Assembly (NCBI GenBank): GCA_050084515.1
Contig: CM114271.1
Span: forward strand, 1,116,001 to 1,180,000
Length of the DNA: 64,000 bases
From: Blasia pusilla
Lineage: Eukaryota
Reading direction: 5' to 3'
Shown here: one piece after another, positions 6,133-37,930 of the stretch
Layout: every line of letters begins with the position of its first letter
How positions within the stretch are numbered: position 1 is the first letter of the stretch
The notes under the pieces: model-generated
The model's input: the letters and a program-made list of their open reading frames with translations, nothing else
Database searches by the model: none
What the model was told of the DNA's origin: nothing
Program-made: the position numbers and the translations under genes

Positions 6133-6134
6133 TT

Positions 6135-10575: not shown

Positions 10576-10599
10576 CTCCTCATCAACCTCGCCATGCCA

Positions 10600-15047: not shown

Positions 15048-15072
15048 CAAATAGACATAGTCCGTAGATTTG

Positions 15073-15480
15073 CCGAAGTGTCTAGGTAGAGATTCGGTTT
15101 CATAGATAGGGTTGGGGGTTACTCCGTTGAGAGTGACTTTTCTAGTAGGGCCCTTTCTTAGGTTGGAGAATATAGTGTGGAGGGCACTCAAAGAACAGTT
15201 AGTTCTTTGAGTTGAGCCTGTTGCGTTGGGAGTTAGCCTTGGTAGTGAGTAGAGCTCTTGGCTATGGTGGTTCCCGCAACATTCGACCTCGATTCTCCCA
15301 TCGTGAAGTGGGTTTGGCTCGATTGTATTTGATTCTATACGTGTTTTATGACAATAGGTCTTTCACGGATTTCAGTTGTGATACACTTGTATTTGTGGAT
15401 GCTCTCGTCTACGTTATGCATGTAGGTGAGTATGGTATGTCAGCGATGGATGTTGTATGACGATGTGGATTTGCACGACA
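15073..15480 (+). repeat. Family A right terminus: partial A2 (to 15373) and B2 (15374-15480)
   Basis: Matches the reverse complement of 8231-8640. The 107-bp B2 ends ACGACA. PHD, PPT, B1 and the start of A2 are deleted. Confidence 0.9.
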
Positions 15481-15494
15481 ATCAAGATAGAATT

Positions 15495-16011
15495 TGTCAC
15501 GTCTCTTAGGATAGATCGGTGGGATCTAGTAGAGCGCCTTTGTGAGTAGCGGAGGACAGGCTCAATAGGTCAAGGATGACTTGCTCAGGCCACAGGAAAC
15601 TTGAGAGAGCAGGTTTCCACTTCGTTTCGGCTCATTTGGAGCCATATTGAGGAACTTATTATTTCAGGTACGTACCATTTTGAGTATGTGATCGACTTTC
15701 TATTTTTGGTAAGTGGACCTTGACCTCCTACATGAGGTCAAGAGCCAAGGAGGTGACTTGGGAGCATAGGTTACCATGTAGAGAGCTTGGGAGAGGGGAA
15801 GGGTATACTTCAAAGAGAGAGAAAGAGCTTGAGATCTCATTCTCTCTTTGTTGAACTTCTTGGCATAAAGCAGCGGAGCTATGATCCCTTGCCTTGTGAG
15901 TGTAATCCAAGCCTCTCATTAGGAGAGTGGGTTTGGTTTGACATGAGAAAGAGTGCACACCTTTGAGAGCTATGGTGTGAGATGGTGTAGAGAGAGATTG
16001 GATCTTACTTT
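15495..16011 (+). repeat. Family B terminal repeat A1
   Basis: About 90% match to 25464-25978. It is followed by internal sequence, not by segment B. Confidence 0.92.
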
Positions 16012-16013
16012 AA

Positions 16014-16027
16014 AAAGAGAGGATGAG
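16014..16027 (+). promoter_or_regulatory. Putative self-priming PBS of family B
   Basis: AAAGAGAGGATGAG pairs (one G-U) with CTCATTCTCTCTTT at 15836-15849, about 30 nt after TATA at 15804. Confidence 0.65.
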
Positions 16028-18039
16028 AGAGTGAGAGAGCTTCATGGAGAAGCTTGCTGGTCATTCACTTTTTTTGGAGGTTGGGGACCGTGTTCCCCAT
16101 TCAGCGGCTCATGGGAGTGCTCACCGGAGCAAGGGCTACTTTGATTGTTCTTTGCATTTGCCGATTTTTCATGTGGAAGAGTGGCACGCGAAAGCGCTGC
16201 CCAATTTTTGATAGGGATTGCTTATGGGGGCGAGTTGCCCCATGTTGGTACTCTCGGGAGCACCATGTAGCTTGTTGATTTGCATTTTTTAGGTTTTGAC
16301 ATTTTTGTTGGGAGAAATCAGCGCAGAAGCGCTGCCAGCTTTTTATAGGAGAAAGAGACATTGGGCTTTACGACAGTCCCTATCAGTTTTTACTGGAATG
16401 TTCAATTCTAAATATTTTTTGACGTTATTGTAGATCATGAACCTTTGTACCATGTGCAACAAAAAATGCATAATTTGGAGTTGCAAGCAAAAAGTTATGG
16501 TCAATCTTAAAAAATTGCCATTGCTAGGCGATTTTTTGGGTTAAATTGTTCAAACCCTAAACTAGCCGCCACGCCGGCGGTGGCCGTCTCCTTCATAGTC
16601 ACCGTCAACGGTCCGCCGTCGATGGGCAACCCTCACCGCCAACGGTCAACCGTCACTGATATAGGTCAACTGTCATCGTCATTGGTCGTCCGTCACCATC
16701 AACGGTCAACCATCATCGTCAACGATCCACTATCCGTGGTCCACCCTTTGACCCTAAATCATGGAGTTCATAATGGAGATAGAGCAGATGAGTTCATTCA
16801 AAAATATTCTACAATTTAGATACAAGAAGTTGCCACTTATGGATCGCCAAGAGTTCAATTACCCAGCATCTCACTCTATGAAGTTTCTGAGATTCCTACG
16901 ATCTGGCCAACAATACAGACAACACCAAGAGATGAGTTAACTACCAATACCCTTATTCAAGATGGATTATTGGACCCTCAACATGAAGTCATCAATAATG
17001 CCTCAACTCTTTGAAATATTTGGAGTAAAGTAATCTTAAGAGTGGATATTTTTCCATTTGCACTTGATGAAAGCATGTTATCGTCACCGTCATCGGTCGT
17101 CCGTCACCATCAACGGTCCATCGTGTGTTGTCCACCCTTTGGTTGCCATTGCCGCCGTTATGGAGTGGAGGTCTTCCACGACGTTCGTTGATTCTTTGAC
17201 TTGCGTCACCACCACGTACTTTGTTTTGGCCGCCACCTTCATCGCAACTTCGTCACAACCAGTGATAGCAGATGACCTCCGGTTATGGTGATTGAGTTTT
17301 AATTTCATGTTGTTATGTTGTGATTGGTAGTTGATCGACGATGATCAAGAACCGTGCGGTGACGCCCATAGCCGCCGATTGCTGCACCATGTCGCTCGTG
17401 GCCGCACCGCACCGTCTCGATTGCACAACCGCTTCTTCACTCAGGAGCAAAGCGTGTGAATTGCTCATTGAGGAGGGTATGCCCCCGAGTGCCACACCCC
17501 TTTCCTGAGTGCCGTGTTGTTTGTAGCCATTCCATGATGCAATTGCCGCACCGGACCGCTCCACCTGCACCACACATCGAGGAGGTTGAGCAACATTAGT
17601 ATGAGAGGAGTACGACTTGCTGATTGGAGGAGTTATCTTCGCGACCGAGTTGGGGTCGAGATTTGTAATTGTCGAGGAGCGACATCGCCATTATTGTCAG
17701 GTTGCCCATTCTGGTCTCTTACCCTGCATGTGTGAGGGATTTCAAAATATTGGGAAGTTATTTTTGATATAGGCTTTCGTGTTGATGCTAGGAGCATCAA
17801 TGATGTATGGGTTTAGGGGACATAGACCTGTGTGGGATGTCTAGAGTTGAGGATGGTTTGTCGATGAGACGATAGATCAGTTATTTGCCGCACCACGCTG
17901 CTTGTTGCCCATAACACACGTCTCAGTGAGAGAGTGTAGATTGAGAGCCGCATGTTTAGTTTGAGTGATTGAAGGATTACTCGTGAGATTGAGAGTGATT
18001 GTGTGAGAGGGGCACGAGGGCCATCACGGCATCTTTCAG

Positions 18040-19540
18040 GATTTTGAGAGGCGAGGTAGTGAACCTGAGAGTAGCTCTAGAGGGTTTCGGAGTGGTGCGA
18101 GGTTTCGAGGGCCTCCACCTGAGAGATCACCTCGATCTCCTTCTGTGACTTCTTCAGATGAGGGAGAGCGTATAGAGGAGTGTGTTATTGATCCACCATA
18201 CACATTGAGTGGTCCTACCAGTTGGGCGTACGATATGGACGACCGGGGTAGAGGATCGCGTAGGTTTTCGGGTGTTGTAGGCACTATAGAGCTACACGAC
18301 TTTATTGCGGAGTTTAGGAGTTAGTGTGACTCACAGCGGGGCTAGGAACTCTAGAGAGTTCAACCTATTTACAACATGGACCGGTATGTTGCAATATTTA
18401 GAGGGGGCGCCCATGCACGATTACCATGAGTTCTTCCACATATATGCCCAAGAGATTGAGGCATGGCGACTCTACTACGACCGACACTATGTGTCATGGA
18501 CGGAGCCGTTCCCAAATGAGGAGGAGGATTCAGGAGTGGTTACTTCCTCTTCTACTAGTGATGTTTTAGGAGGGATCACTCATAGTGGAGCAATTGCACC
18601 ATCCAGTCGGGTTCGTCCTAGGTTCAACCCCGTGATTGAGTTCTTCGCTGAGTTGAGGGCGAGCTACCAAGGGGTACGAACGGAGAAGTTACGGAGCATC
18701 CATGACTTCCAGAGGCGCCCGGGTGAGAGTTTGCGTGAGGCTTACACTTGCTTGCGCCGGTTGATCAATGTTACTTAGGGGGTGACAGAGGCTCAGGCTA
18801 TCCAATCATGGTACGCGATGTTGGACTAGACACTGCGGATACCGGTTCAAGAGGGGGTGCTCCTTATGAATACCTCCCCTACGTTGAGAGATGTTATTAG
18901 AATATTGAGAATGCTGAGAATATTGAGCGCAACATGGCGGAGGAGAGCGTAGCCACCATGGGTTCTGGGCGAGAGCAGTCACGATTGTCTGCAACACCAA
19001 TGCAGCAACGTGGATTCCGAGATAGGTCAACTGTGGAACCACGAGCTTAGGGAGGATACCGGGACGCAGTGCCATATATACCTGCACCTTCATATGCGGC
19101 TCAGCAGCAGCTGCCTATGATTACTTGTTGGTCATGTGGTAGAGCCCATCATCATCGCGATTGCACTCGTCTGGGTCACGGACGTGTGCCTCAGCATGGA
19201 GGAGGAGATGGTGCTACACCAAGAGGCTATCAATGTGACTATTATCAGAGGTATGGTCAAACATGCGCTAGGTGTTTCAGTTTACATCCTGAATTACGTC
19301 CGAACCAAGGGCCAGAGAGGGCACGAGAGCAAGTAGTTAGTCCGGGTGGGCCTGGAGATCGTGCACCAGGTGGTCCTCTTGGGGGACGAGGAGCTGGAGC
19401 TGCCCGACAGGGTGGTGGAGCTGCCCTTGGAGGAGGTAGAGTCCCACCACTTAGATACGTTGAGGGAGACGCCGGACGTGAGGTTGCGATGGCTGCTCAG
19501 ATACAACAGCTATAAGAGCAGATTGCCGCTATGGCATTGA
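18040..19540 (+). pseudogene. gag remnant of element B
   Basis: FQRRPGESLREAYTCLRRLI. Zinc-knuckle remnants CWSCGRAHHHRDC and CDYYQRYGQTCARC. Homologous to family A gag. Confidence 0.8.
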
Positions 19541-20154
19541 GGTTACCCAATGCCGGATCCGTGGCATCGACATCACATGGAGCAGCCAGGGATATAGAGG
19601 ATCCTGGTTGGATGTGCGGGATTGCCCAGATAGAGACCGTTGCGGTTGTGACGCGTGGAGCAAACGTAGAGTTGGATCCACAACGAGGGGAAGCCAAGAA
19701 ACACACTAGGCTTCCTCAATCTTTCACGTTGTCCGAGGCGATGAGGATCCCATCGATGGGTGCCGATCATAATTCTTGGAGAGTTGGTGATGTTGTTGGT
19801 GTGAAGGCACGGAGGGCGATGGGAGAAGCGAGTGTGACAAGTCCTATTGCTGATGCTCAGGAGGAGCATGTGTCGAGCATGTTGTTGGGGGCGGCCACTG
19901 TTGTGTACCGCACTTCTTTATTTCCTACTTCCGATGTTATGACGTTGGGGGGTACGCCCGCCGAGGCTTTTCGGCTGGCGGCTTCATTATGTGAGTGCGG
20001 AGTTGGAGTTCCTGCATCACGTTTAGAGGTGATTGTAGAGGAGGTGATGGACATGCCCTTGGATCGGATGCTCGGGCCGTCCACGTCATATTCATGGCTG
20101 GCTGCAGCTGCTAGGATGGCGGAGATGCCCGTTGACCCGCGATAGAGTGTGTGA

Positions 20155-20600
20155 TGGCTTCTCCTGGTGTTGTGTTGCTAGATAACCGAGGAGAGGTCTT
20201 CCAATTGGTGAGTTCCGAAGGTAGAGCTTTTAGTCCGCAACGGGTCTTGTTGGATTCAAGAGCACAACCCCTGATGTTGGGGAAAGCATGATTCATAGGA
20301 TTGGGCTTGACGAGAGCCGATGTAGAGCGTTATCCATTTCGGATACAGACATCCTTAGGTGGAGCAAGTACCACACATTATATCACCCGACAAGAGGTCG
20401 TGGTGAGGATTCGCGTGAGACATCCTATAGATGAGTCTATGGTGCGAGCCAAGGCAATAGTGACAAATATAGAGTCTACGACGTCTTGGTTGGTGGAGCA
20501 GTGTTATACCCGATGGGGTTTTCCCTTGATGAGTGGCAAGAGTTAGCATCCTACAGACCAGGATGGCAATCAGATGATGGGCGCCTTAACTCATTACTCA
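20155..20600 (+). pseudogene. Aspartic protease remnant of element B
   Basis: RVLLDSRAQPLMLG at about 20241-20283 (decayed LLDSGAQ), followed by PFRIQTSLGG. Confidence 0.7.
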
Positions 20601-20956
20601 TTTGATTCATAGGTGTAGTGATGGCCATGAGAGGTGGCGACCTTAGCAGCATTTAATAATGTCATCACTTGGCCTAATGATTTGATTGAGGGACATGTCC
20701 ATGCAGAGGATACTCTTGTTCTTGATATTTCTATGGAGAGGAGTGTTATGGTAGCCGCATCATTCCCTGGAGGAGAGGTATCGCTGTAGGGTATGCCGAT
20801 TGAGGAGCTTCGACGATTAGCCATTGAGCATATGCAAACCGCGTGGAGCGAGACGGTTGCACCAGAGTGTGACGGGTCAGAGGAACCCCAAGTAGGCAGG
20901 AGTCCTGCTTTGAGCCTTTGGACACCACCCCGATTATGTGGTGCATCCCAGAGAAG

Positions 20957-21900
20957 GGTATTTGGGTGTTGGATCTCTTTGGAGGGATCAGCATAGGGTT
21001 AGCTGCTCTTTTGCACGTTGGAGTGCGCGTGCAGCAGTACCTGTATGTGGAGATTGATGATGTTGCAAGGTGCGCTTCACTTCACCATGTGGCGTTGTTA
21101 CGCCTCCGTTTTCCCGACTTGTTGTGTGCGTCCGTCATTCAAGGTTACGAGAGTTCCCTACCGAGGGACATTTCATCATTGGGGAGGCAGGACTTGGAGC
21201 GGGTAGGGACTATAGACTTGGTCAATGTTGTTTGGCCGTGTCACGGCCAATCGAGTGTTGGACGTGGTAGCGGGTTAGCTGACACTCGATCGAGGTTATT
21301 TTGGGAGATGATGCGGATCTTGCGACATTTACAGGAGCATCAATCTCGTTCTCCAGCATATATTTTGGAGAATGTACCAATTTTGGGCAAGTCGAGATCC
21401 CGTGCGTGGTGACGAGTGCGCATCAGGTGCGCGCATGGATTGACCTGGCGGTGTTGTTAGATGCGGAGAGTGTGGGTTCACAAGCATATCGCCCGTGTCT
21501 TTGGTGGACCAACTTGGTACCACACGAGGTGTTACTGAGGGCATATGCGAGAGTGGAGCGCCCCTCCGATTTGTTTTTGGATTCTATATTGGATCCGGGC
21601 CGTCGATCACAGTGAGGCTAGATGATCGACCGTGGTTGACTGTTGTCAAGAGGATTGGCATGCCACGGGCAGCCTTTCCCACATTGGTGAGTTTTCCTGC
21701 TTCTTATGCATTCAAGGACGCCCGACCTAGGTGGGTTTGGGATGACCAAGTACAGAGGTTGGTGGACCCCATGTTGATGAGCGAGAGCGAGCGATGGGAT
21801 TCCCCATAGGAATGACGGCCATACCATCACTATCAGAGGCATCATGACGTCATGTCTTGGGTCAGGCGATGGACTTGAATTGCTTGACATGGATTTTCAG
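20957..21900 (+). pseudogene. Complete but degenerate DNMT3-like methyltransferase domain between protease and RT of element B
   Basis: VLDLFGGISIG, YLYVEIDD, WPCHGQS, YILENV, AYRPCLWWTNL, and motifs IX/X ERAMGFPIGMT..RHVLGQAMDLNCLTWIF (21787-21898). Compare DNMT3 ERVFGFP..RQRLLGRSW. Confidence 0.93.
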
Positions 21901-22209
21901 CTCAGGAGTAGCTGAGCAGCGTCGTTTGAGGATGTGGTAGATCACAGTTGTTGCATTGGTGAGCCCCATGCCTACCGAGATGATTAAGGCATCGATCGGG
22001 GGCAAGACTTGAGGAGATCAATACACCAGGGGTGATCGGAAGAGAAACCCTTGGACTTCTTGGGATATTTTGCAGGTACGCCAAGAGATGATGGGCACAT
22101 CATCGAGTGTGGTTCCGGGTACTACAAGTGGCGATGAGAGTTCTATTATCTAAGATGGGGTTGCACCATAGCAACCACCGACACCCGTGCCAGAGAGTCC
22201 TACCGTAGT

Positions 22210-23620
22210 CACGATGGAGACTTGGGAGCCAGATATGGGCCCTAAGTTGACAGGAGGAGAGCGGCGCCGAATAGACCAGTTCCTTAGGAGTTATAGGAGT
22301 TATTTTGCGTTTATCATGGAGGATTTGGGTACTTTGAAGGGACCAGGGATCCGCATTGAGTACTCGAGTGATACGCCGATCTTCGACGATCCTACAGGTA
22401 CATTGATATGGAAAGGGCTCTGATTCAAAGTAGGAGCCAAGACTTGGTTGGAGCAGGACTAGTGAAGATGTTGCATGGGGAGTATGCATCTGCCATTGAC
22501 ATGCCTGCCAAGAAGGATATGTATGGCAACTGGACGGATAGGCGGATGTGTGGGGATTACCGGCCTATCAATCGGCAGACAAAATCTGATAGGTATGCCA
22601 TGCCCACTCTTGAGGAGATATTTGATGCATTGGTCACGTAAAGGTCTTTAGTTCATTGGATTTGCGAACTAGATACCATCAGTTGCCTATCAGATTGGAG
22701 AACAGGAAAAAGATGGCATTTTGGGGTATCGATCCTCACGGGAAGGATTATTTGTACTAGTGGCAATTCTTACGATTTGGGTTAAAGAACACCCTCGCTG
22801 AGTTTCAGAGAGTCATGGATAGGATCTTGGCATGTATGGATTTTGCTAGGTGTTATATTGATGATATCGTAGTCTTTAGAGCCACGGTTGAAGAGCATGA
22901 GCGACATCTAGAGGAGGTGTTTCGACAATTACAGCTACATGGGATGAAGCTACATCTAGACAAGGGTAAGTTTTTCTACAACCAGATTGAGTACTTTGGC
23001 CATACGATATACCTAGGTGGCCTTGGTGTTCAGCAGACGAAGGTAGAGGTTATTTCACGCATTCCACGCCATGTGAGTCGCATTCGTGCATTCATGGGAT
23101 TGGCGAACTTCTATCGGCGGTACGTCAAGGGATTCAATTCGATTGCAAAGCCATTGACCTTTCTTACAAAGGTGGATCATGAGTGGCACAAGGGCGATGA
23201 GCATGAGCGAGCATTTTAGCTGCTCAAGGACATATTGACGTCCGTGCCCATCTTGAGGAGACCGATCAGGGGACGTCTTTTCCAGTTGTACACAGATTGA
23301 AGCATGTTGGGGCTTGGAGCGGTGCTCACGCAATATGATGATGAGGATAGAGAGTTCGTGGTGGCTTATGCTAGTCGTTCGAAAAATGTTGCAGAGGCAA
23401 AGTATAACTCATATGAGGGTGAGTGCTTGGCTGCGATGTGGGATGTCGCACATTTCAGGTGTTACTTATTCAGCAATCCCTTTACCATCATCACTAATCA
23501 TCAACCACTAAAGTGGTTGATGGAGTCCGACAAGCTTACAGGGAAGCTTGCGAGATGGGCTCGGTTGCTGCACAAGTATGATTTTCAAGTGGTACATAGA
23601 CTTGGGAAGCTCAACTAGGA
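22210..23620 (+). pseudogene. Reverse transcriptase and RNase H of element B
   Basis: RMCGDYRPIN, CYIDDIVVF, FMGLANFYRRYVKGF, VVAYASRS, TNHQPLKWL. Stops and frameshifts present. Confidence 0.95.
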
Positions 23621-24019
23621 TGCAAATGGACTCGAGTCGTAACGCATGCTTGAGTCAGCGAGATGCGACTGGAGCTCAATGGCATGGAGAGAGTGATGAG
23701 GAGTCAGTGCCAGAATGGCACGCATCAGCCTATTTAGGCTTGTTGGCTGTGGTGAGCCAAACTATGGAGACTTTGATAGCGAGGTCTGATGGAGAGTCCT
23801 TGGATCTCGAGGCCAGTGAGGAGACGACACGTGGCCGAGATATTCCCAATGATGGAGTAGTCTTGGAGTATCTGCATACAAGCAGCATTGCGAACACAGT
23901 GGGTGCTAGAGAGTGGGATCGAGTCCTACAATGGGCCAGACCGTTCCGTTGGGAGGGGACACATGTGCTGCGAGTGTGGGAGGATGGTAAAGTGCGTGTA
24001 GTGCCTCATCCTTATTAGA

Positions 24020-25150
24020 GAGCACGTTTAGTGCGTCATGCCCACGAGGAGTTGGGTCATTTTGGAGTGACCCAACTCCAACATTTTGAAGCGGACATAT
24101 AGCTTGCTTTAGATTCAGTATTATTGGCGAGGCATGCAGACTGACGTTTAGGAGTTTGTTGCCAAATGCATGGTGTGTGATCGAGTCTGAGCATCGTTTA
24201 GTGCTCCAACTCCACAGTTGCGTCCACTTCCAATCATGGGTTTAGGTTATAGATGGATTTTAGGTTTGGAGTTAGGACCTTTGCCTTTGATGGAGCACCA
24301 TAGTCGTTATGTGTTGGTGATGGTAAGCACTTCTTGAAATGGATAGAGTTGGTTACATTGCCTCACAAAGCAAGTGAGGGAGTAGCGTATGACTTCCTAG
24401 ATCAAGTGCTGAGTCATTACGATGCACCAGCTGAGGTGTTGACAGACGAGGGTACAGAGTTTCGCGGGGAGTTTCAGGCCTTGTGTGATCAGGCATTGAT
24501 CAACCACCGCACTACTTCGTGAGATCGTCCTGAGGCGGATGGACTAGCGGAGCGGGTTGTGCGAACGGTGAAGAGAGGACTACGCAAGTATGGCTTGCAG
24601 AGAGGTCACCTAGGAGATTGGGACCTTCACTTGCCGTGGTTGGTGATGGGATACAGATTCAGCAGGCAGGCATCCTTAGCGTCTTTCTCACCGTACTTTT
24701 TGCTTTATGGTTGTGAGCCAGATTTACCTACGGCCATTCGTCGAGATACTATTGAGGTGTTGAACCTTGATGACCCTGATGTATGGATGCGAGCATGTTC
24801 TGAGTGAGCAGACGGCACCCACGACGTTGGATGTGACTGTAGGGCGCACCATCTTGAGAGTGCGTGAGGTTTTGCCATACGGTATTCTCTTATTAGAGGG
24901 ACGCGATGGTATGGTTTGGAAGGACCATGTGCGTAACTATGCGCCATGTCATCTTCCAAACATTGACAATACAATTTATCCGAGCTTAGCAATAGTTCCT
25001 GTAGGCTTGCGGTGTATATTGTGTGGTTGCGCCCGTGGTGCATCCACTATGCTAATATGTGATGGGTGTTGGAGAGGATGGCATATGGCATGTTTGACGC
25101 CAACTCTCACTAGGGTTCCTCAGGGATGATGGATGTGTCCCATATGGACA
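24020..25150 (+). pseudogene. Integrase with C-terminal PHD finger, element B
   Basis: HAHEELGHFG, VLTDEGTEF, DGLAERVV. PHD is CILCGC..MLICDGC..WHMACLTP..VPQG*WMCP. About 140 bp are deleted at 24807 relative to family A. Confidence 0.92.
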
Positions 25151-25333
25151 TAGAGTAGGTAGTTCTACATTCCGACTTGTGTCTGTGATATGGATGACAA
25201 GAAGGCGACTAACGAAGTGGCCACATGAGCACCCGGCCTTCTTGCTCTTAGCGTCCGAGAGATTTATGTCATGGTAGGTAGGGATAGATGGCTATCTGGA
25301 GTTAGAGGGACCTAACCACCAGCTAGGGGGGCG

Positions 25334-26106
25334 ATTGGAGATATTTTGGTACTTCTTGTCTTGTTGTTTGGATGTCATAAGTTAGCATGGGATCGTGCAT
25401 GTTTGTGTGTGTGTTTGGTGACAGCGATGTATGTTGTGTAGCGATGTGTATGCGCATGACAGTTGTCATGTCTCTCAAGATAGATCGGTGAGATCTAGTA
25501 GAGCATCTTCGTGAGTAGCGGAGGACATGCTCAGTAGGTCGAGGATGACCTGTTGAGGCCCCATGAAACTTGAGAGAGTAGATTTCTCCTTTATTTCAGC
25601 TCATTTGGAGCCATATTGAAGAACTTACTATTTTAGCTAAGTACCATTTTTAGTATGTGATCGACTTTCTATTTTTGGTAAGTGGCCCTTGATCTCCTAC
25701 ATTAGGTCAAGAGCCAAGAAGGTGACTTGGGAGCATAGGTTACCATGGAGAGAGCTTTGGAAGAAGGGAGGGGTATACCTCAAGGAGAGAGAGCTTGAGA
25801 GCTCATTCTCTCTTTGTTGAACCTCTTGGCATAAGGCGGCGGAGTTATGGTCCCTTGCCTTGTGAATGTAACCCAAGCCTCTCATTAGGAGAGTGGGTTT
25901 GGTTTGACATGAGAGAGAGTGCACACCTTTGAGAGCTATGGTGTGAGATGGTCTAGAGAGAAATTGGATCTTACTTTTATTGGAGATATTTTGGTACTTC
26001 TTGTCTCGTTGTTTGGATGCCATGAGTTAGCATGGGATCGTGTGTGTTTGTATGTGTGTTCGGTAACAATGATGTATGTTATGTAGCGATGTGTATGCGC
26101 ACGATA
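25334..26106 (+). repeat. Family B 3' terminal block: B1 (25334-25461), spacer GT, A2 (25464-25978), B2 (25979-26106)
   Basis: The 128-bp B segment occurs twice. Junction CATGACA-GT-TGTCATG. PPT TAGGGGGGCG at 25324-25333. Confidence 0.93.
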
Positions 26107-27024
26107 AATTGTACAACTACATAGGGGAGGAGTAAGGCATATATCCAACGTGAATTAAGCCTATCTTCATATACACTTTGTTCTCTTATTTTTCAAAGGT
26201 GAAGTAGGTTGGCATCATAAAATATCCTTTGGGAGACTCTAAGGTAACTCAACATCACGACTTGTAAGAAGTTTTAGACATAGGGAGGAAGAGGATACTG
26301 AATTGTTAGATTATTGCAAAGAGGAAAGAAATGATGGGTATGTTATTGAGGAGACGAGGACATAGAGTACTAAGACATTGCAATTTGCAAGTTTTCTACT
26401 TCGAACACGGATAAGGGGAAGATGATAATCAACTACTTTGATTTGGTTGACTTACTCAAGAATATATGGTTGACATATATACCAGTGTGGAGATGCAAGG
26501 ATTACCATGGGAAAAGTTAAATCAAAAGGAGCTAAAAGATGATTTATATCAAGGTGTAAACAATGTCGTGTATGGATATGATGTTGATAGCACAAGATTT
26601 GGGAGATATGTTGTAAAACCCTCATCTTTTATTAGAGACTCACGTCATGTGCATAAATTTTATTAAGATGCAATGGTAATAAGATTGGAAAGTCACATGA
26701 GTATTCAACAACAAACTCTTTTTTATTGACTATTGGAGGTGGGAGAAGGTTATCCGTCTACCTTTGCATCCTCATTTGGGAGAAGACTTCATACGATTAC
26801 AACTTGAAATGGTTAATGGTAGTAACAATGTATGCAATCTTATTGATCTTATCTACAAAATAATCTTCTTTCCAATTTCATGACATTGACTTCTTGAGAG
26901 TAGGGTTGCACTGCAATGGACATGCCCAACATGTCCTCCCGCATGCACCCGACTTTTTTATATATATATATGACTATTCATAAGTCTCAAGGTTAAATTC
27001 TATATAAAGTAGGAATTTATTTAT
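26107..27024 (+). pseudogene. Helitron H1 RepHel remnant, middle part (internally deleted)
   Basis: 26107-26680 aligns with 50361-50940 (YMVDIYTSVEMQ..LNQKELK..LYQG). 26720-26900 aligns with 53710-53880, and 26980-27024 with 54420-54465. Confidence 0.88.
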
Positions 27025-28180
27025 TGTGATACCCACAATTTTGAACTTCGGAAGAAATTTATCTTTTTATTGAACAAAGACTCTTGTACATTATGGTTTT
27101 GATTATTATATACTATCATGGAGAAGAAAGAGTAAGATTCAAGTGAATCATGAAGCTCCTAGGACAAGGCAGAGAGTTGGAAGATCAAGGATTTGCCTTA
27201 GAGGAGAAGCAAATGCAGTAACGAAGTCTAAAAGACCAAAACAAAGCTTAACGAAGCTCAACGAGGCTCAGACACGAAGTATTTTGCTCTTAGCAAAGCA
27301 CGAAGAACGAAGAATGAAGAGCTTTGTCCTCAAGAAATTCAGAGCAGCGAAGCTCAGTGTGCTTGTGATTGGAACCGACACATAGTTAAAACAGTTAGCC
27401 TAGGAAGAGGCGCAACCATTTGTATCAGATAGACAGTTAGGACAATTTTGTTCTCCGGATTCCTAGGGATCATTGGAAAAGGAAAGCACACCATAGATCT
27501 AGGTAGTTACATATATTGAAGAGACACCAACTTCATCAAGAACGTTGCGGATCTTGGAAACGCTCCTACTCCCGAGAATATTTAAGAAATAGGACACAAG
27601 CTACAATTATCATTCGCTCATGAAGTCCTTATGCCGTAGGAATGGTCTGAGCAAGAGAGTAGTAACCTCTCGAAGCTTTATACGCTTTAAAGTCTTCCCA
27701 TTCTTTATGGAATAATAAACCACTCATTCATTCATTCTGATGTGCGAGGCTTACGTTGGGATAGTCTTTTTGGGTCTGCAGAGTGAAGAGTGAAATCAGA
27801 CAAACCTTTCTCATCAATGGAATAATCAACATGGAGTTGTATGAAATATGTTTGACATAGAGTAGCCTGCCAAGACGGATTGAGTTCCGAAAGTAGGAGA
27901 AGCCAACCTTATTGTTGAGATCTCTGTGAGGTTCCTAGATGTCAAGAGAACAATTTGCCTGAGCGTGCTTTAAATTCCATCGGAGAAAATTGAAGAAGAA
28001 AACATAGGTATTGAGAAGGATCGGAAGATGTTACTGGAATACTGCAATTGAATTACATAATCAACCATACTACTCTTACAACATAATAATCACTTTACCC
28101 TCTCTTTTCATCAAGCAATGATCCTCTTGGGGATCGAACTTACTAAATCGACTATAAAATAGAAACACTTGTACATTACA
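27025..28180 (+). repeat. 5' LTR of element D
   Basis: About 98% identical to 36511-37692. TGTGATAC..ATTACA. Confidence 0.95.
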
Positions 28181-28197
28181 TATAACAAGAAACTTTT

Positions 28198-28217
28198 TTG
28201 CGCCGCTGCCGGGGATC
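28198..28217 (+). promoter_or_regulatory. PBS of element D (tRNA-Asp type as in Athila-like elements)
   Basis: TTGCGCCGCTGCCGGGGATC resembles the Athila PBS TGGCGCCGTTGCCGGGGA. Confidence 0.7.
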
Positions 28218-28647
28218 ATATTCTTGGCTGAGAAGGGAGAGAGACCCATGGGGAATCCGGGAGCGGAGAAAGAAGCTTCGCCCCCTAGAAGACCCAAAAA
28301 TATAGTTCTTACTGAAGACCATCTGCTAGCTCTAGCGATCCCCTTAAAGACAATGGATGCTTGAAGACAACAATAGATTTGCTGCATTGGTGCTAGAGAA
28401 AATAGACCAACTAATTAGAATTGTCAAAGAACCAGTCGCCGAACGGTGCTTCGCCCATGAACGATAGTAGTACTTGGTGAAAACCCGGTACTTCTGTTTA
28501 TGGGAGGAAAACCTGGCAGGAAGATTAGGAGCACCAGGCATGCTCCTGTAGGTGTAGAAAGAAGAAGTAGTTAACCTCCCTCCATGGACCCTTACCCTGT
28601 CACCACCGTGGGGGTGAACGCAAGTTGCCAAATCCCACAAGAGACTT

Positions 28648-31161
28648 ATGGAAGGCTCTCGGCCCTCTTCGCGAGAGCAGCGAGCCGATCGGCGCAGTAA
28701 GCAGCAGGAAGAGCAACCGGCTTGGAGACCGCCTGGTTCGTCTCCAGGTCTTTGTCCTCGTCCGAAGCCAAAGAGCAAGAAGAAAGACAGGGACAAAGGC
28801 TCCACTACGTCCCCTGCCAGTTCACAGTCGGACGAAGAGTCGTATTGGGACCCCTTTGGGGAGTCAGGGAGCGAGGAGCCGATCAGACCACCTCGGGCGG
28901 AACCGTTACCTTCCCCCTCTCGAGCATCAAGCCCGGGAGCCAGCAGGAGAGCGGTGCCCATGGCCAATACTAGAAAAACTCTGCTAAGGTACCCCACCTT
29001 TGCTGGGGGACGACGAGACGATGTGGATAACTTTGTGCTTGAATTCACCCATGTCGCAAAAGCCAATGGGGAAGGTGCAGAGGAGGATTTGTTACAAGTC
29101 TTTCCTGGCCTGCTCAAGAAGCGAGCAAGCCAGTGGTACGAAGGTCTCGGAGCAGATGTCACGGAAACTTGGAAAAGGGTCTTGGAATCCTTCCTACATG
29201 AGTTCCGCGACTTGGAGTTCGAGGACAGGCTTCTTACGAAGCTTCGCGACCTGAAGCAAAGAAAGAAGGGGACCCTCAAGGAATATACCCAAAGGTTCCG
29301 GAGCCTAGTGAATAAGATGGAGCACACGACTACCTCCCAATTGGTAGATTGGTTCGAGTCCGGCTTGTCCAAAGAAATGGATCGGTATTTCCGGCGAGGC
29401 CAACGGGATTCCCTGGAGGCGGTCATAGCCTCCGCTGAGGCATACGAGGCCTCAGAGAAGTCCCGCAGAACACGAAGACGGCGTCACCAACGGAGAGGGG
29501 CGTCGCAGACTAGTGCTTCGTCTGAAGACAAAGCGTCCTCCACAGACACGGAATCCTCTACGGAGGATACGTCCGAGTCCTTGGACTCGGAGCAGGAGGT
29601 GAAAGCTAAAAGGAAAGGGAAGAGCAGGCATCATCGCTCCCCCAAGCACCAGAACAAAACCCGACCAAGCACCAAACATCGTCCCCAACGGTCGGAAAGT
29701 CCAGTGAGAGGGACGGCAAGGAAGTCCGGCAAGTCGGCCATGGAAGAACTCAGTAAACAAATGGCTGAGTTGAAGGTACATTTGGCGGCCGAGAAGGACC
29801 CCAGAAGACGACCCGGGCTGATGAGGCACAACATTTGGTGTAGTAGTTGCGGAACCCAAGGGCATACTGTACAGGAATGCCCTACGCAGAGGGATCTACG
29901 GTGGATCCAGGAAGAGGCCACTATTGAAGAAGGGTGGTATGAACCTGACCAGTGGGAAGGATGCTATGCCGTCCAAGCTGTGCCACCCCCAAACCCCGGG
30001 AGAAGCTGGATCACGCGGTATGTGCCTCCGGAATACGGGGAACAAAGACCCCTGAGACAGATTATGGGCGCGGAAGCCTTCACGCCACCCATCAAACAAA
30101 ATTGTTGTTATAACTGCGGCGCAGCGGACCATTGGGCCAACAATTGCCCAAACCCAAAGCGACCAGTGGGACTCAATCCCTTATGCGGGAACTGCAAGAA
30201 GGGCGGACACACTGCCGTAGAATGCCCGGAGCCCAAGGTCCCGCGGTTGTTGGTCAGATATGTCAACACTCCAGCGGCTCAACTGGAGCCCAAAAATGAC
30301 GTAAATGTACAACTTGTCCGAGTGGAAGAAGTAGTGTCCCCGAGACCAAAGCGAGTCACTATCAGTGAGGAAGACTCGACCGAAGGGGCCAAGGAGGAAT
30401 CATCGGACTGGCCCAAAGAGTTCCAAGAGACCGTTCAGGCTGTCACCACGAGCTCAAAGAGTCAGACCGCGGGGATCCCAAAGGTAAAGAAGGGTGCTTC
30501 GTCTTTGCGCAAAGCTAGGGAGCCCAAGACCAAAGCTGGGAACACCTTACGTGTTGGGAAGGCCATCCTCAAAGGCGATATGGACCCGGCCTTTGATCGA
30601 AGTCATCCGAGGTACTTCCATCAGGATGTAGAGGACCAGGTTCGTGCTCAAGTGCGTGAGGACCAGGAGCCAAAGGGGAGACAGACCCCTGAGAAGACAA
30701 AGACCAAACCAAGTCCGACAGTCCAAGCCATTGCGACATCACCGCTGGTCCTAGAAGCTTATGACTTACCGAGGGACTTGGCGTCAACCCCGGCCAACAT
30801 AACCCTGCTACAATTGCTAATGGATAACCCAATGTACGGAAAAATTTTGCAGCAGTGGAAAATAAGCCGAAAAAAGCCCAGGAAGTCGGCAAAGCATTTG
30901 CCAGTGGTGGATCTGTTCCGGATCAAAGTAGAAGACTTGGGAGCCCCAGAGGTGGAGGTGGAAATTGAGGGCCATACCATTAAGAAGGTCCCCATTGATT
31001 CCGGAAGCAAAATAAACATTATGACGGAGCAAACAGCTTGGGCACTAGGGTATACAGAGTACGAGCCCACAGACAAGTATCTGCGGTTTGCGGATCAATC
31101 CAGGAAGAGACCCCTAGGACAGCTCACTCAAATTCTGACCATGCTCATTTGGACTACTTAG
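28648..31161 (+). CDS. Gag-protease of element D
   Basis: Retrotrans-gag-like region (LKQRKKGTLKEYTQRF), three CCHC knuckles (CSSCGTQGHTVQEC, CYNCGAADHWANNC, CGNCKKGGHTAVEC), protease PIDSGSKINIM. Frameshift near 31150. Confidence 0.92.
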   Translation: MEGSRPSSREQRADRRSKQQEEQPAWRPPGSSPGLCPRPKPKSKKKDRDKGSTTSPASSQSDEESYWDPFGESGSEEPIRPPRAEPLPSPSRASSPGASRRAVPMANTRKTLLRYPTFAGGRRDDVDNFVLEFTHVAKANGEGAEEDLLQVFPGLLKKRASQWYEGLGADVTETWKRVLESFLHEFRDLEFEDRLLTKLRDLKQRKKGTLKEYTQRFRSLVNKMEHTTTSQLVDWFESGLSKEMDRYFRRGQRDSLEAVIASAEAYEASEKSRRTRRRRHQRRGASQTSASSEDKASSTDTESSTEDTSESLDSEQEVKAKRKGKSRHHRSPKHQNKTRPSTKHRPQRSESPVRGTARKSGKSAMEELSKQMAELKVHLAAEKDPRRRPGLMRHNIWCSSCGTQGHTVQECPTQRDLRWIQEEATIEEGWYEPDQWEGCYAVQAVPPPNPGRSWITRYVPPEYGEQRPLRQIMGAEAFTPPIKQNCCYNCGAADHWANNCPNPKRPVGLNPLCGNCKKGGHTAVECPEPKVPRLLVRYVNTPAAQLEPKNDVNVQLVRVEEVVSPRPKRVTISEEDSTEGAKEESSDWPKEFQETVQAVTTSSKSQTAGIPKVKKGASSLRKAREPKTKAGNTLRVGKAILKGDMDPAFDRSHPRYFHQDVEDQVRAQVREDQEPKGRQTPEKTKTKPSPTVQAIATSPLVLEAYDLPRDLASTPANITLLQLLMDNPMYGKILQQWKISRKKPRKSAKHLPVVDLFRIKVEDLGAPEVEVEIEGHTIKKVPIDSGSKINIMTEQTAWALGYTEYEPTDKYLRFADQSRKRPLGQLTQILTMLIWTT

Positions 31162-34100
31162 TCTTGCAGCCCCTGACCACCACGGGCTATCCTTTGCTCA
31201 TCGGAAGACCCTGGCTGTATGGCGTGAGGGTGACTACGGATTGGAAAAGGCGACGTTTCACATTCCAGGCACCGAATCAGGTCTCGAAGCGGCTCATCAA
31301 GCTGGCGTGGAAATCACGACCACCCCAAGGAGAGACGCCACCGACTGACGACGGCTATACGTCAGATCAAGACCCCACAACAACTACGGAGTCCTCGTCC
31401 CAGGTGTATTATTTAGAATGTTACGAAATAGACGAGGAGTTGGTACCCTCCAAGCCGAGGTCGACCCGAGAGGAAGAGAAGCTAGGTCATAGCACCTTCC
31501 AATTTACAGAGAACATGGTTCAGGAGCAGGACTACGTCCAGGTCGTTATTGCAGATCAAAAGTCTCTCCGCCTTTCGGCAGATTTGTCTCCCACCACACT
31601 TATGAAGTATAAAAGACTACTGTTTGAGTATTTGGATGTCTTTGCATACTCCATGGATGAAATGACAAGCATTCCCGCTCGGTATGGTGAACACCGGATT
31701 GATCTTAAAGAAGGGGCGGTCCCGGTGCGAATGCGACAATATCGACTGAATCCAAAGTACTCATTGTTAGTCAAGGACGAGATCGACCAGCGTCTCGAGG
31801 CAGGAATAATTTATCCTGTGTTAAGCAGCGAGTGGGTATCGCCCATCGGAATTGTACCAAAAAAAAAAACGGGGAAAATCCGAGTGTGCCAGGATTATCG
31901 GAGATTAAATGCTGCCACCTTAAAAGACCACCATCCTTTACCTTTCACTGAAAGTTTTTTGGATAAAGTTGCCGAGCACGAGCGTTATACTTTCTTGGAC
32001 GGATACTCGGGTTATAACCAGTTATCCATACGAGAAAAGGATCGTCCCCTCACCACGTTCACCACAGACTGGGGAACTTTCGCATATCACGTAATGCCTT
32101 TTGGGTTATGCAATGCCCCAACTACTTTCCAACGAATGATGATCTCCATCTTCCAGGAGTATCTGAGGAATTTCGGGGAAATCTTTTTGGACGAGTTTTG
32201 TATCTTCAGTACAGAGGCCAAACATCTGGAAAAGTTAGAGTTAACACTCGCGCGTTGTCGTGAAGTGCATTTGTCCCTTCATCCGGACAAATCGTATATT
32301 GCTATGAAACAAGGAATTCTGTTGGGACACATAGTTTCGGCTCAAGGAATTGAGGTCGACAAGGCCAAGATGGATATTATCGTCGCATTGGAACCACCTA
32401 CTAATCTCCCGGAAGTGAGAGGATTCTTGGGACACGTCGGGTATTATCGACGGTTTATTAAATATTATGCGGTAAAAGAGGGAGCTCTTACTGCATTACG
32501 TAAAAAGACCACCGAAGGGGAGTGGACACCAGCGTGCCAAGCGGCATTTGACACCTTAAAAGACGCATTGCAAAAAGCTCCTGTACTCCGGTCCCCCGAT
32601 TGGACCAAACCCTTCCACGTATATGTGGACACATCCTCATTTGCCATTGGAGTAGTGCTCAGCCAATTGGATGAGAACAAACATGACTTTCCGATTTACT
32701 ACGCCGGCCGACAACTATCGGCAGCGGAGCAGAAATATACAACTACCGAACGAGAGGCGTTAGGCATGGTCTTCTCGTGTAAAAAGTTCCGACACTATTT
32801 ATTAGGGTACGAATTTGTCTTCCATGTTGATCATTTTGCACTCAGACCCTTAAAGGTGAAAGCAGACTTGTCAGGGCGCATTGCACGGTGGATCTTGTTG
32901 CTACAAGAATTCACATTTGATGTTGCTACCCGTGCCGGCAAGGTGCATACCGATGCAGATTTTCTTTCCCGGTTGAGGATGACAAACGCGGACCTCACCC
33001 AATCCGTCGATGATACCTTTCCCGATGAAGACGTGTTCCAGATAACAGAGGATCGGTTGAGCCAGTCTTTTTATGAGGATATTTTGCGTTTTCTAATGAC
33101 TCTGCGACTTCCGGCCCCGATGACAGCGGAAGAACGCGCAGTTTTCTTACATCAGATAGGACCATATGAGATTTTTCAAGGGGTCCTATTCAAATTAGGT
33201 GCTGATGAAGAGTATCGACGATGCTTGGAAGCATAAGAAGTCCCCCAGGTCATCAGAGCCCTGCATATGGCTGATTCTGGTGGACACTATGCGGTAAAAA
33301 ATACCGTTAAGAAAATTTTGGCCGCACGTTATTGGTGGCCAACTATGTACAAAGACGTAGGTAATTTTATCCGGAGTTGTGATGCCTGTCAAAGAGCAGG
33401 TCGACCCACGGCAACTACGCGGTGGCCTTTGGTCCCCATCATGCCCCTAGCTCCTTTTGAAAAATGGGGCATTGACTTCATGGGCCCTATCTCCCCGGCC
33501 ACTCGCCAAACCCGACGGAAGTATATTCTTATCTCCACTGACTATTGTACTAAGATGGTTGAAGCAGTAGCCACGCGAAAAGATGACAGTGAAGCAATGG
33601 CCAAGTTTTTATACGAGATGGTTATCACGCGGTATGGCTGTCCGTTGGAACTAGTTAGTGACCGTGGCACGCACTTCTTAAACCAGACTGTTGAGTCTCT
33701 CACTTCCCACTTTCTCATTAAGCATCGGAAAACCACCCCCAACAACCCTAAAGCCAACGGGTCGACGGAAAAAATCTAACGGCCTTATTTGCCGAATATT
33801 GAATCGATTGACGGTAACATATTCCTATGATTGGGGCACACAAATTGCCGCAGCATTATGGGCGTACCGAACAACTGAGAAGGTTACTAATAAATACACC
33901 CCGTTCTTCTTGACGTATGGCATCCATCCCTTAACACCTATTCAATGGGCTTTGCCCACTTATCGGGTATTGGAGGGAACAAGAACGGAAGCCGTGGGCA
34001 AAGTTCTCGAACATAGGAATGAGACCTTGGTTGCGTTGGAAGAGGCACGCATGCTTGCGTTACGCCGAACAGCCCAAGTGCAAAATGAACGTAAGACACG

Positions 34101-34341
34101 TTACGATCGACATCTCCGGCCACAATCTATCAGTGTTGGAGACTTAGTGCTATTGTATGATAACCGGCAGCTCAAGTTCCCCGGAAAATTAAAATGAAAT
34201 TGGATGGGACCCTACCGGGTATTGGCCATCTATGATAATGGATCCCTACAATTAGAAACCTTACAAGGAGACTCCCTGCCAAATTGAGTCAATGGCATGC
34301 ATGTGCGCCGTTATTATGAGCCCGAACCTGGTGCGGACTAA
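31150..34341 (+). pseudogene. Pol (RT-RNaseH-integrase) of element D
   Basis: FLDGYSGYNQ, MPFGLCNAP, IFLDEF (altered DD motif), VYVDTS, GHY..CDAC, WGIDFMGP, VSDRGTHF. Stop at 33234, frameshift near 33775. Confidence 0.93.
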
Positions 34342-34620
34342 AATAGGAGGAAGGGGGTAGGCGAATGCTTAGAGGCCAGCAAAGAAAGCAAAGAAGAAAT
34401 CGAGGGCCGCAGCGTGAAGCACACAAAGTTGTTGGAGCGCGGCAAAGACGCGAAGTGCCAACCTTCTTGTTATAGCCCCGGCGCCACGACCAAGAACTGA
34501 GAGCGGGAGCAGACTATAAAAGCGTTGCGTCGTATTCAAATGGGTATTTTCATGGACAGGATCACCACAAAAATGCGTAGCAAACCAAAGCGGGGCGTCC
34601 ATCGAGATCGACCTAGCAAC

Positions 34621-36471
34621 ATGCCTCGCAAAGACTCCACGCCCATTTTGCGAAGCGCGGCAATGCCGATGGTCAAGCTGTCACCGGAGCTGGTCGAAGC
34701 GTTGGAGGAGCGATCGTTGGCAACTTTCTTTCAAGCCAACTAGACCTTGACATCCAGAGAACTCCTCGGCGAGCTTCGCTCTTCGACTGTCGTAGCCAAG
34801 TTTCGAAGGAAGGGTCTTCGCTATCGAGCTCAGCCCCAACAATGGACGGTCGATGACTGGAGAGCAACTTATCTGCTCCCGGCTGCGCCAGAGTACGAGT
34901 ATGACACGGAGTTGCTAGTAAAGCATGAAGATCTCTTAGCACTCGGTCAGATCACGTCTCGAGCGCTGGCGAGAATGGCTACAAGGCTACTTCACTCTTC
35001 CTGCCAGTCTTTAGTCAGTTTTGCAAACATTTGATGACTCTATTTTATCCCGCTCGTTCTTACTATCTGACGAACAAGCTCGTGAAGATGTGCTACATCA
35101 TTTGGAATCAGCACCTGGAACCCGAAGCCCCCGGAGTCGTCTTCGCTTCTTTTGTGGACGGGCATGTACGAGCAATGGTGGAATTGCTTCATCCAAGCAC
35201 GAAGTCCTTCCTATCCCCTTTCTTGATCCATCTTTATATTCACAAGCAGGAATTGACAGCAGATGAGGCGCTAGATTGGTGGCAAGTTACCCCCGTCCGA
35301 CTACCACGGAAAGGAGGAACTGGTACCATGGGCAGCAGTGAAGTCACACCGCCCTCTGAAGCACCCAAGTACCATCCTCATACTTCGGCTTTAAAGAAAG
35401 ACAAAGACACCACCGAAATGCCACGACCAAAGCGTGGCCGAGTCAATTTTGAAACACCCTCGGCCCCAGAACCCGTCAATCAGGAGGACTCCGACGAGAC
35501 ACCGCGGGCAAGTGATTACCAACCTGCACTTCGTCTCATGTCCCAGACGGCAAACGATATGATGTGGTTCTTGCAAGTAGCGGTTCCAGTCATGAATCAA
35601 CTCAACATGTTCTTCACCTAGAGGATACAACGTCGGTGGACGATTATTTACAAGCCCGTGGACGATCACAAGTGTAGGGCACAAGCTTCGTCAGACAACG
35701 AAGCACAGCGATCGAGTAGCAGAAACGAATCTTCACTTACGGGATCAAGAACTCGAAGACATGAAGACCGCGCTTCGCAAAGCTCAAAGCGACTTGGTCC
35801 AGTGTCAGTACGAAGCACGGAACGCACGTCAATGGGAGATTTTGTCGATTAACCTCGAATGTGGGGCGGATCAATTAGCTTCACAAATCAAGGAAGCTTT
35901 GAACCTCATTGGCTAGTATCGGCATCAAATACGGCGTGTTCACACCGAATTCAAGAAGTTGGCCATCCAGCATGCTGAATCTTCGAAGCTACTTCAAGAA
36001 CATCAAGAAACGAACAAAGACTTAATGGCGCAGTGGTCGGAGGCTACAGGTAGAATCGCAGTGTTGGAAGCAGAGTAGAAGCTACTCCACGAAGCCCAGA
36101 TGGACCCGCAAGATGTTAAGGAGCTAGTCAACGAAGCAAGCAAGAATTTCGAAGAACAGATGAGCGAGGAAATCGACTATATCAACAAACATTGGAAGCG
36201 CCAATTCGACAATCATACCAAGTCTCTTCCAGAAGCTGTTCCCACTCTTTCACTTACTCTTGAAGAGTTACCATCATTTACTCCATCTGATGTCTTAGTC
36301 CAGAATGAAGTCCTAGGGAGTAACTTAATTGTTAACAAGTCGAGAGAGAGAATGCACAATCATACCCCTAACATTCTCAACAAACCTTCTACGATTCACG
36401 GTCGTTTTGCACCTACACCAGAGTTTGATAGCTTAGAGGATACATTTATGGACATAGGAGAGACATCATGA
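34621..36471 (+). pseudogene. Accessory ORF between integrase and 3' LTR of element D, function unknown
   Basis: Chain of ORFs (34525-34743, 34747-35034, 35031-35621, 36100-36471) joined by single stops or frameshifts. Coiled-coil-like C-terminal part. Confidence 0.65.
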
Positions 36472-36510
36472 AGTGTTCGCCGGGGCGGCTCACATTTGAG
36501 GGAGGGGGTA

Positions 36511-37692: not shown

Positions 37693-37930
37693 TATATCTA
37701 CTCTTCTATTCTCACATGGTCAATTGTACATAGAATTGTCTAGAGAAGGAAAGAAAATTTCCATTTACATTACAATCAAAAGCGACACACATTCAAATAA
37801 TGATGGTAATTACACACAAAATGTAGTATATAAGGAAATTATTGAATGAAATAAATTTCATATATTTTGAAAAAACATATTTATATGACATTCACTATGG
37901 CACCCATGCATTGCACGAGCACCTTACATG
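37693..37930 (+). mobile_element. Helitron H1 3' end
   Basis: FSHGQLYIELSREG helicase tail aligns with 54470-54620. Decayed hairpin CCATGCATTGCACGAG and terminal CTTACATG|T correspond to CTTACTAG|T at 54693. Confidence 0.85.

Follow-up and report, generated by a model that had tools for sequence, protein, structure and literature searches.

Split terminal repeats and two sets of ends in a DDE-integrase Gypsy element of Blasia pusilla

Introduction

Retroviruses and long terminal repeat (LTR) retrotransposons make a linear complementary DNA (cDNA) that is integrated by its outer ends. Circular forms are seen as waste, and the joint of a two-LTR circle as a dead end. Here we ask how an element that has a DDE integrase comes to be inserted with split terminal repeats. 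The element, Element II, lies in a 64,000-nucleotide stretch of the Blasia pusilla assembly GCA_050084515.1 (contig CM114271.1, positions 1,116,001 to 1,180,000 of the forward strand). We call this whole stretch the window and give all coordinates as positions in it. An earlier note on the same DNA had described the order of the repeats (A-internal-B-A-B) and had interpreted it as the footprint of a two-LTR circle opened at an internal site. The observation is confirmed, and the interpretation is partly supported.

Results

Element II has the order A-internal-B-A-B and is flanked by a target duplication

We found that Element II (15495-26106, + strand) is laid out as A1-internal-polypurine tract (PPT)-B1-GT-A2-B2 and sits between two copies of AATT, a 4-bp target duplication. 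The features that define its ends, and the empty site with which they were compared, are as follows.

15491-15494, no strand: left AATT of the 4-bp target duplication (letters and empty-site alignment)
15495-16012, +: A1, the sole repeat of the 5' end, begins TGTCACG (repeat comparison)
15835-15849, +: site within A1, TCTCATTCTCTCTTT, complementary to the stretch right after A; predicted transcript start and self-primer
16014-16028, +: sequence resembling a primer-binding site (PBS), AAAGAGAGGATGAGA, 2 nt past the A1 end (complementarity)
25325-25334, +: PPT, AGGGGGGCGA, directly 5' of B1 (letters; 13 relatives alike)
25334-25461, +: B1, terminates CATGACA
25462-25463, +: GT, the 2-nt spacer separating the abutted inverted 7-mers (2 nt in 13 of 13 relatives)
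25464-25979, +: A2, begins TGTCATG
25979-26106, +: B2, terminates CACGATA (26100-26106), which is CACGACA with one C>T change
26107-26110, no strand: right AATT of the target duplication (letters and empty-site alignment)
50318-50392, +: uninterrupted paralogue of the host repeat Y, with the empty target ...ATCG TGATAT AATT... (alignment with the flanks)

A1 and A2 are 86-92% identical (598 nt at 86% in the comparison of the window with itself). B1 and B2 are 90% identical across 126 nt (E=2.9e-44), and the first A of B2 is shared with the end of A2 (position 25979). A letter-by-letter check placed the palindrome CATGACA-GT-TGTCATG at 25455-25470.

Both ends of Element II are confirmed by the paralogous empty site at 50318-50392. 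The Y paralogue aligned with three flanking pieces, ...GAC(C/T)ATCG, ATCA AGATAG AATT and AATT GTACAAC.... In this alignment, the 14 nt between an upstream B-like block and A1 are target DNA of Y. The block itself, a diverged B at 15376-15480, belongs to another, related element (Element I, described below), whose 3' end it forms. The repeats, the junction letters and the empty-site paralogue thus bear out the layout and the AATT duplication given in the earlier note, with two small corrections: the first base of A2 is 25464 (not 25465), and the last base of the element proper is 26106. The note had also stated that the 5' end has A only. That holds for Element II; a diverged B does exist 14 nt upstream, and it belongs to Element I.

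Element II encodes a DDE integrase and a DNMT3-like methylase

Read through stops, Element II has the order gag-(protease)-DNMT3-like methylase-reverse transcriptase-RNase H-DDE integrase-PHD finger. The recognizable parts, all on the + strand, are:

19126-19164, +: gag zinc knuckle, CWSCGRAHHHRDC (from the translation; Pfam gave no call)
20975-21403, +: C5 cytosine DNA methylase domain, DNMT3-like, with motif I LFGGISIG and motif VI ENV (Pfam DNA_methylase)
22632-23009, +: reverse transcriptase, RVT_1 (Pfam), with YIDD at 22854-22865
23196-23579, +: RNase H, RT_RNaseH (Pfam)
24089-24817, +: integrase, an H2C2 zinc domain followed by the DDE core
25013-25141, +: PHD finger at the C-terminal end of pol (Pfam)

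The DDE core of Element II was assigned by homology to rve-positive open reading frames of Elements I and III. A better-preserved relative from a metagenome, locus L076, has the same domain order; the best solved relatives of its methylase part are DNMT3A and DNMT3B, with a weak match (E=4e-4). A Pfam search of Element II in six frames and of L076 in its three + frames gave no tyrosine recombinase (no Phage_integrase), in agreement with the earlier note. That note had recognized the DDE integrase and had overlooked the methylase and PHD domains.

The nearest proteins are liverwort and moss entries, 73-76% identical, and proteins with the Pfam set reverse transcriptase, RNase H, methylase, integrase and PHD are common in public data. 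Differences between reads and the window over 15300-26300 are mostly A>G and T>C. The copy in the window has therefore lost G/C to A/T, in line with old age and methylation. Element II belongs to a green-lineage clade of Ty3/Gypsy; it is of the bryophyte type, old, and decayed through methylation.

The layout recurs at independent loci

We compared the copies in the window, 80 metagenome loci fetched by pol alignment, and raw reads of the window's species. Three pairs of loci (L017 and L018, L025 and L026, L021 and L022) are the same locus each and were counted once. By homology census and direct reading, the 3' end B-nn-A-B was found in Elements II and III of the window and at 12 independent loci (L005, L007, L009, L018, L020, L024, L026, L029, L030, L031, L060 and L076). 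Two further loci have B-A at the 3' end, where the contig ends, and 21 independent metagenome loci have a single B. In a first scan, 33 of 47 eligible loci had no B..B pair; most of these carry a single B according to the homology census. The plan is also found with different sequences: in the second subfamily of the window, a repeat called Z takes the place of A. Element III of this subfamily has the same B-nn-repeat-B arrangement, and Element I starts with Z alone.

Neither B-A nor A-B-A was found at any of 15 5' ends (3 in the window and 12 at metagenome loci). As the earlier note had predicted, B-A..B-A was never seen. Two of the other forms it had expected, A..B-A-B and A..B, were present; A-B-A..B was not.

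A perfect 4-bp duplication was present in 6 of 12 elements checked, including Element II (AATT), L009 (AAGG), L076 (CCAA), L003 (TACA) and L014 (TTTT). Three of the four bases match in five elements (Elements I and IV of the window, L018, L026 and L030). No matching duplication was found at L042 and L070, which are rearranged loci.

DNA reads from the window's species, mapped at 85% likeness from ~1% of one run, cover Element II 600-2700-fold. Among them, 1486 pass from the B end into unrelated sequence (agreement 0.33), indicating that B is a true terminus at very many sites. By a rough read-based estimate, the Blasia pusilla genome has hundreds to thousands of copies of the clade, and the clade is transcribed.

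Locus L054 has a second, larger set of repeats around a pol element (113-1027 and 10667-11764) in the order A'...B'-A'-B'. A' is ~915 bp, B' is 96 bp, and the end sequences differ. This outer set may represent another family of the same plan.

Reverse transcription and integration appear to use different ends

In all 13 relatives examined, the PPT lies directly 5' of B. On the other side of the unit, in 10 of 15 elements, the 11-15 nt right after A can pair with a site that lies 130-175 nt upstream of the end of A. The two sites covary: each of three subfamilies has its own sequence pair, and 0-4 of 200-300 shuffles equaled the pairing. In Element II, the pairing with the TCTCATTCTCTCTTT site spans 15 bp including one G-U pair, and none of 300 shuffles matched it. 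This pairing and its covariation probably point to self-priming like that of Tf1. A PBS of the transfer RNA (tRNA) type was also considered. No TGG-type PBS follows A in any subfamily, and self-priming is preferred.

Judged by the positions of the PPT and the candidate priming site, the LTR as defined by reverse transcription would be B plus 2 nt plus A, the unit that the earlier note had named. A conventional LTR consisting of A plus B is ruled out, as B never follows A at the 5' end (0/15).

By the target duplications, integrated copies run from the start of A to the end of B. Both termini are inverted 7-mers, as the earlier note had it, and these 7-bp repeats abut, with a 2-nt spacer, inside the LTR as defined by reverse transcription. 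We are confident of this anatomy and of the existence of two separate sets of ends. In this anatomy, the integrated copy is a circular permutation of the cDNA, and the integrase must act at an internal palindrome.

The spacer between B and A varies in sequence (GC, AC, GT or AT). These variants differ only by transitions around a palindromic CAGCTG, and we rejected them as a mark of de novo formation; deamination of methylated cytosines (CHG sites) fits them better.

The A-B joint is rare in RNA and variable in length

Three stranded RNA runs, chosen by species label, contained sense transcripts of the family. We counted joints as split reads. Reads going from the end of B to the start of A (the B-A joint) numbered 86 in DNA and 16, 38 and 20 in the three RNA runs. 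Reads going from the end of A to the start of B (the A-B joint) numbered 110 in DNA and 0, 2 and 2 in RNA. Scaled to DNA, the A-B joint was ~24-fold under-represented in RNA relative to the B-A joint. Past the end of a Z-type B, RNA reads enter A with an agreement of 0.96-0.98; DNA reads are mixed (0.61). Since RNA reads continue from B into A and rarely carry the A-B joint, the RNA looks conventional: R-U5...PPT-B-A(U3)-R, where U3, R and U5 are the usual parts of an LTR.

The two joints also differ in how faithfully their length is kept. The spacer of the B-A joint is 2 nt in 13 of 13 copies. The length of the A-B joint differs in 5 of 10 related copies. This variation sits exactly at the U5/PBS boundary, where 0, 1, 2, 3 or 4 nt are kept; two copies vary at the start of B. 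Based on its scarcity in RNA and its variable length, we infer that the A-B joint is re-made in each cycle and that the B-A joint is inherited through RNA. The A-B joint is probably made by joining of cDNA ends (end joining). It behaves as the earlier note had proposed for a joint of this kind.

Copies with a single B are mostly older

We built a tree from the last 1.2 kb of pol plus B, leaving out L064, whose branch was aberrantly long. The median end branch was 0.11 for single-B copies and 0.06 for B-A-B copies (Mann-Whitney p=0.011). Nine of the young copies had B-A-B and seven had a single B; among the old copies, the numbers were 2 and 12 (Fisher p=0.026). These results fit the notion that single-B copies are mostly later products of recombination between the two B repeats, with A2-B lost over time. 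The earlier note had listed A..B copies as possible products of one-LTR circles; given their longer end branches, most look secondary.

Other elements in the window

Three other copies of the clade are present in the window.

2149-15480, +: Element I, a related subfamily with Z replacing A; rearranged, with nested DNA inside
8231-12290, -: Element III, a 5'-truncated inverted copy
43078-45340, -: Element IV, an internally deleted A-5' untranslated region-...-B copy with one A and one B

Element I begins TGTCATGACC, with Z only, and ends Z-B. Its duplication is ATCG (2145-2148) and ATCA (15481-15484), and its methylase is at 12998-13300. Elements I and II, of one clade and in the same orientation, were inserted 10 bp apart in a single copy of Y. 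This spacing could reflect chance or a target preference.

Element III lies inside Element I and shares 96.7% identity with the 3' part of Element I itself. Its 3' end consists of a PPT (8819-8809), B' (8808-8704), GC, Z (8701-8336) and B'' (8335-8231), and its flanks carry a 370-bp direct duplication that is 88% identical (7804-8172 and 12361-12722). An open frame of 752 amino acids inside Element I (3843-6098, - strand) had DUF4100 as its sole match (E=3e-7) and is probably another nested element. The A of Element IV is interrupted by ~1 kb of foreign DNA that has inverted ends (44050-45048).

A 310-bp piece of the 5' untranslated region of Element II (16770-17080) is repeated at 1042-1351, outside the recognized elements, with 93.6% identity. 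Tandem repeats of 20 bp lie near this piece, at 16612-16727. A conventional Gypsy element is next door (27025-37696), with LTRs of 1.16 kb (27025-28184 and 36511-37696) that are 96.4% identical and with open reading frames for gag, reverse transcriptase and RNase H.

Discussion

Comparison with known systems

The split direct repeats of Element II, A1-internal-B1-A2-B2, are like those of DIRS, PAT and Ngaro elements. Those elements use a tyrosine recombinase and make no target duplication; in contrast, Element II has a DDE integrase, a 4-bp duplication, a PPT and a PBS-like site. It shares with conventional Ty3/Gypsy elements the order reverse transcriptase-RNase H-integrase, the gag zinc knuckle, the PPT, TG...CA inverted ends and the 4-bp duplication. 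It differs from them in that the ends used by the integrase lie inside the LTR as defined by reverse transcription and in that its terminal repeats are not identical (A versus B-A-B). Bacterial insertion sequences of the IS3, IS30 and IS256 type, which move by copy-out-paste-in, form circles in which inverted ends abut with a short spacer and are acted on by a DDE enzyme. Those junctions are transient; in the clade of Element II, the LTR permanently contains the abutted ends.

Retroviral integrases are reported to cut palindromic LTR-LTR junctions (PMC1905944, PMC1180852). The likeness to the retroviral two-LTR junction is that inverted ends abut with a short spacer and that a single DDE enzyme might cleave the two at once. 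A survey (PMC6317226; Neumann 2019) discusses self-priming in plant elements. Like the Tf1, sushi and Tcn1 elements treated in that text, the clade of Element II has no tRNA-type PBS, and the sequence following U5 is complementary to an upstream site in the LTR. Those elements have ordinary LTRs, and the likeness is one of priming pattern. DGLT-A of Dictyostelium, considered as a possible precedent, was dropped; term searches of PMC5911963 and PMC5006619 found nothing on split LTRs.

The closest published case is KnitGypsy-Dnmt3 from Klebsormidium nitens (de Mendoza et al. 2018), which is given a DIRS repeat structure and a Gypsy domain composition in the legend of Fig. 4c of PMC5890265. As in that element, a Dnmt3-type methylase is inside the Gypsy Pol of Element II and the repeats are ordered A-coding-B-A-B; the likeness is to the published description. 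The earlier note had known of no description of such an arrangement for Gypsy elements, and this legend supplies one. The core anatomy is therefore already in print, yet without an explanation. Element II differs in that its nearest proteins are from liverworts and mosses, and the target duplication, the placement of the PPT and PBS, the palindromic joint and a mechanism go unmentioned in section 9 and the figure legends of PMC5890265. In the literature we found no account of target duplications, PPT and PBS placement or a palindromic joint for elements of the Gypsy-DNMT3 kind, nor of self-priming, joint heterogeneity or occurrence in bryophytes, and the supplements of PMC5890265 may say more on all of these. 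On mechanism, besides PMC5890265, there was only a 2026 preprint that mentions 'Gypsy-DNMT3' in passing.

A proposed mechanism and its alternatives

The best explanation as a whole, to which we give somewhat better than an even chance, is an LTR of B plus A as defined by reverse transcription, integration at the internal palindrome, and a permuted product, A-internal-B-A-B. In this scheme, minus-strand synthesis would be self-primed as in Tf1, the site right after A pairing with the predicted transcript start inside A, and plus-strand synthesis would be primed from the G-rich PPT directly before B. The A-B joint would not be copied from RNA; the U5 end of the cDNA would be joined anew to the U3 start in each cycle, either in a joint of the two-LTR-circle type or by host end joining around integration. 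The integrase would bypass the outer ends of the LTR and act on the abutted 7-bp inverted repeats (...CA(C/T)GACA nn TGTCATG...) inside it, cutting the palindrome of the upstream LTR copy. The product, lying between the two copies of a 4-bp duplication, would be the cDNA circularly permuted to A-internal-B-A-B, and no shorter linear order could give a terminally redundant genomic RNA (R-U5...B-A(U3)-R).

The route through a two-LTR circle fits because of the RNA joint data and the heterogeneity of the A-B joint, and it has a precedent in the cleavage of retroviral junctions. That the substrate of the integrase is a covalent circle is possible, at a little short of an even chance. We are similarly tentative, leaning slightly against, about the broader proposal that this clade of green plants and algae integrates through end-joined cDNA (circular or equivalent), with the internal palindrome cut in the manner of IS3 and IS30 circle junctions.

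Several observations weigh against this explanation. Every type of joint expected of a circle also occurs in integrated copies and is indistinguishable from it by short reads, and no extrachromosomal form was observed. A two-LTR circle has two identical palindromes, and cutting at one or the other should yield A-B-A..B and A..B-A-B equally often; none of the 15 5' ends was A-B-A, an asymmetry for which the model offers no reason. There may be a preference for the upstream palindrome; alternatively, the right-hand B may be added one-sidedly, for example by a template switch of reverse transcriptase or by host end joining after split-donor integration. All copies seen are old, with A1/A2 identities of 86-94%. 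The self-complementarity after A was not found in 5 of 15 elements (Element I of the window, L003, L014, L050 and L070); in Element I the relevant part of A is deleted, and the other four are presumed to be decayed. The signals from RNA read starts and read ends are weak (5-8 molecules), too few to place the transcript ends. The joint counts include split reads only, so that contiguous B1-A2 or A2-B2 reads are not counted apart, and the length variation of the A-B joint sits in an AT-rich stretch and comes from 10 copies. Lastly, single-B copies outnumber B-A-B copies among independent 3' ends of metagenome loci (21 versus 12), and some are as young as B-A-B copies, so direct integration of A-internal-B is possible.

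It is conceivable, though rather unlikely, that no circle is involved and that additional template switches of reverse transcriptase lead to a linear A-internal-B-A-B cDNA; for example, the plus strand could jump from the U5 end to the U3 start, either within one molecule or on another. The integrase would then act on TG...CA ends or trim tails. In its favor, the ends used are ordinary inverted repeats of the TG...CA kind, next to a 4-bp duplication. End-to-end switching without homology would likewise yield an A-B joint of variable length and keep it out of RNA, and a one-sided extension could account for the lack of A-B-A at 15 5' ends. However, the end of A has no homology with the sequence before B that could steer the jump. 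In addition, a whole B (110-180 bp) would still have to be cut off internally at the left end; that is, the integrase would act internally anyway.

The single-B counts that weigh against a permuted B-A-B product could also mean that A-internal-B is the primary product, arising when both internal palindromes of a linear cDNA are cut, or from a one-LTR circle, and that the rarer B-A-B copies alone replicate. Two single-B copies, L003 and L014, have perfect duplications, and 7 of 16 young copies are of this type. We consider this quite improbable, since the share of single-B copies grows with age, from 7 of 16 young to 12 of 14 old, which fits decay from B-A-B. Moreover, about half of the reads from the window's own species that pass a Z-type B enter A, as expected if most copies are B-A-B, although this is a rough estimate.

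Replication in the manner of DIRS, PAT or Ngaro elements would begin with an RNA running from inside A1 into B2, with the internal B1-A2 block serving as the template for rebuilding and joining the ends. To our knowledge, DIRS-type elements likewise never have A-B-A..B, which counts for this alternative. So does the order A1..B1-A2-B2, which is the one drawn for DIRS-type elements (legends of Figs. 1e and 4c of PMC5890265). Against it, no tyrosine recombinase was matched; the element has a DDE integrase and makes 4-bp duplications; B is preceded by a PPT and A is followed by a PBS-like site; and the A-B joint is both depleted in RNA and copied unfaithfully. We regard DIRS-like replication as highly improbable.

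A local accident (nested or tandem insertion, or recombination) or an assembly artefact in a family that otherwise has ordinary LTRs has next to no chance of being correct, and we count it as refuted. Rearranged elements are densely nested in the window, and a B-like block does lie just upstream of A1. Nevertheless, the intervening 14 nt are host target DNA, the joints are backed by thousands of raw DNA reads, and the same layout is found with different sequences in the second subfamily of the window and at 12 independent loci with different flanks.

Implications

Programs that look for two identical LTRs would miss such elements or misplace their ends. The terms 'PHD' and 'methyltransferase' were not found in the available text of the plant LTR survey (PMC6317226), and the absence of the clade from that text may be due to a bias of LTR finders. 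Through its methylase and PHD domains, the clade also connects transposition with chromatin.

A widespread, transcribed clade keeps a DDE integrase and yet always integrates as a circular permutation of its cDNA. If this is indeed a clade whose integrase cuts junctions, then a joint of the two-LTR type would be obligatory in its life cycle, and split repeats like those of DIRS elements would have arisen independently of tyrosine recombinases. Whether an internal site of the junction type can be the normal substrate of a retroelement integrase is now a testable question.

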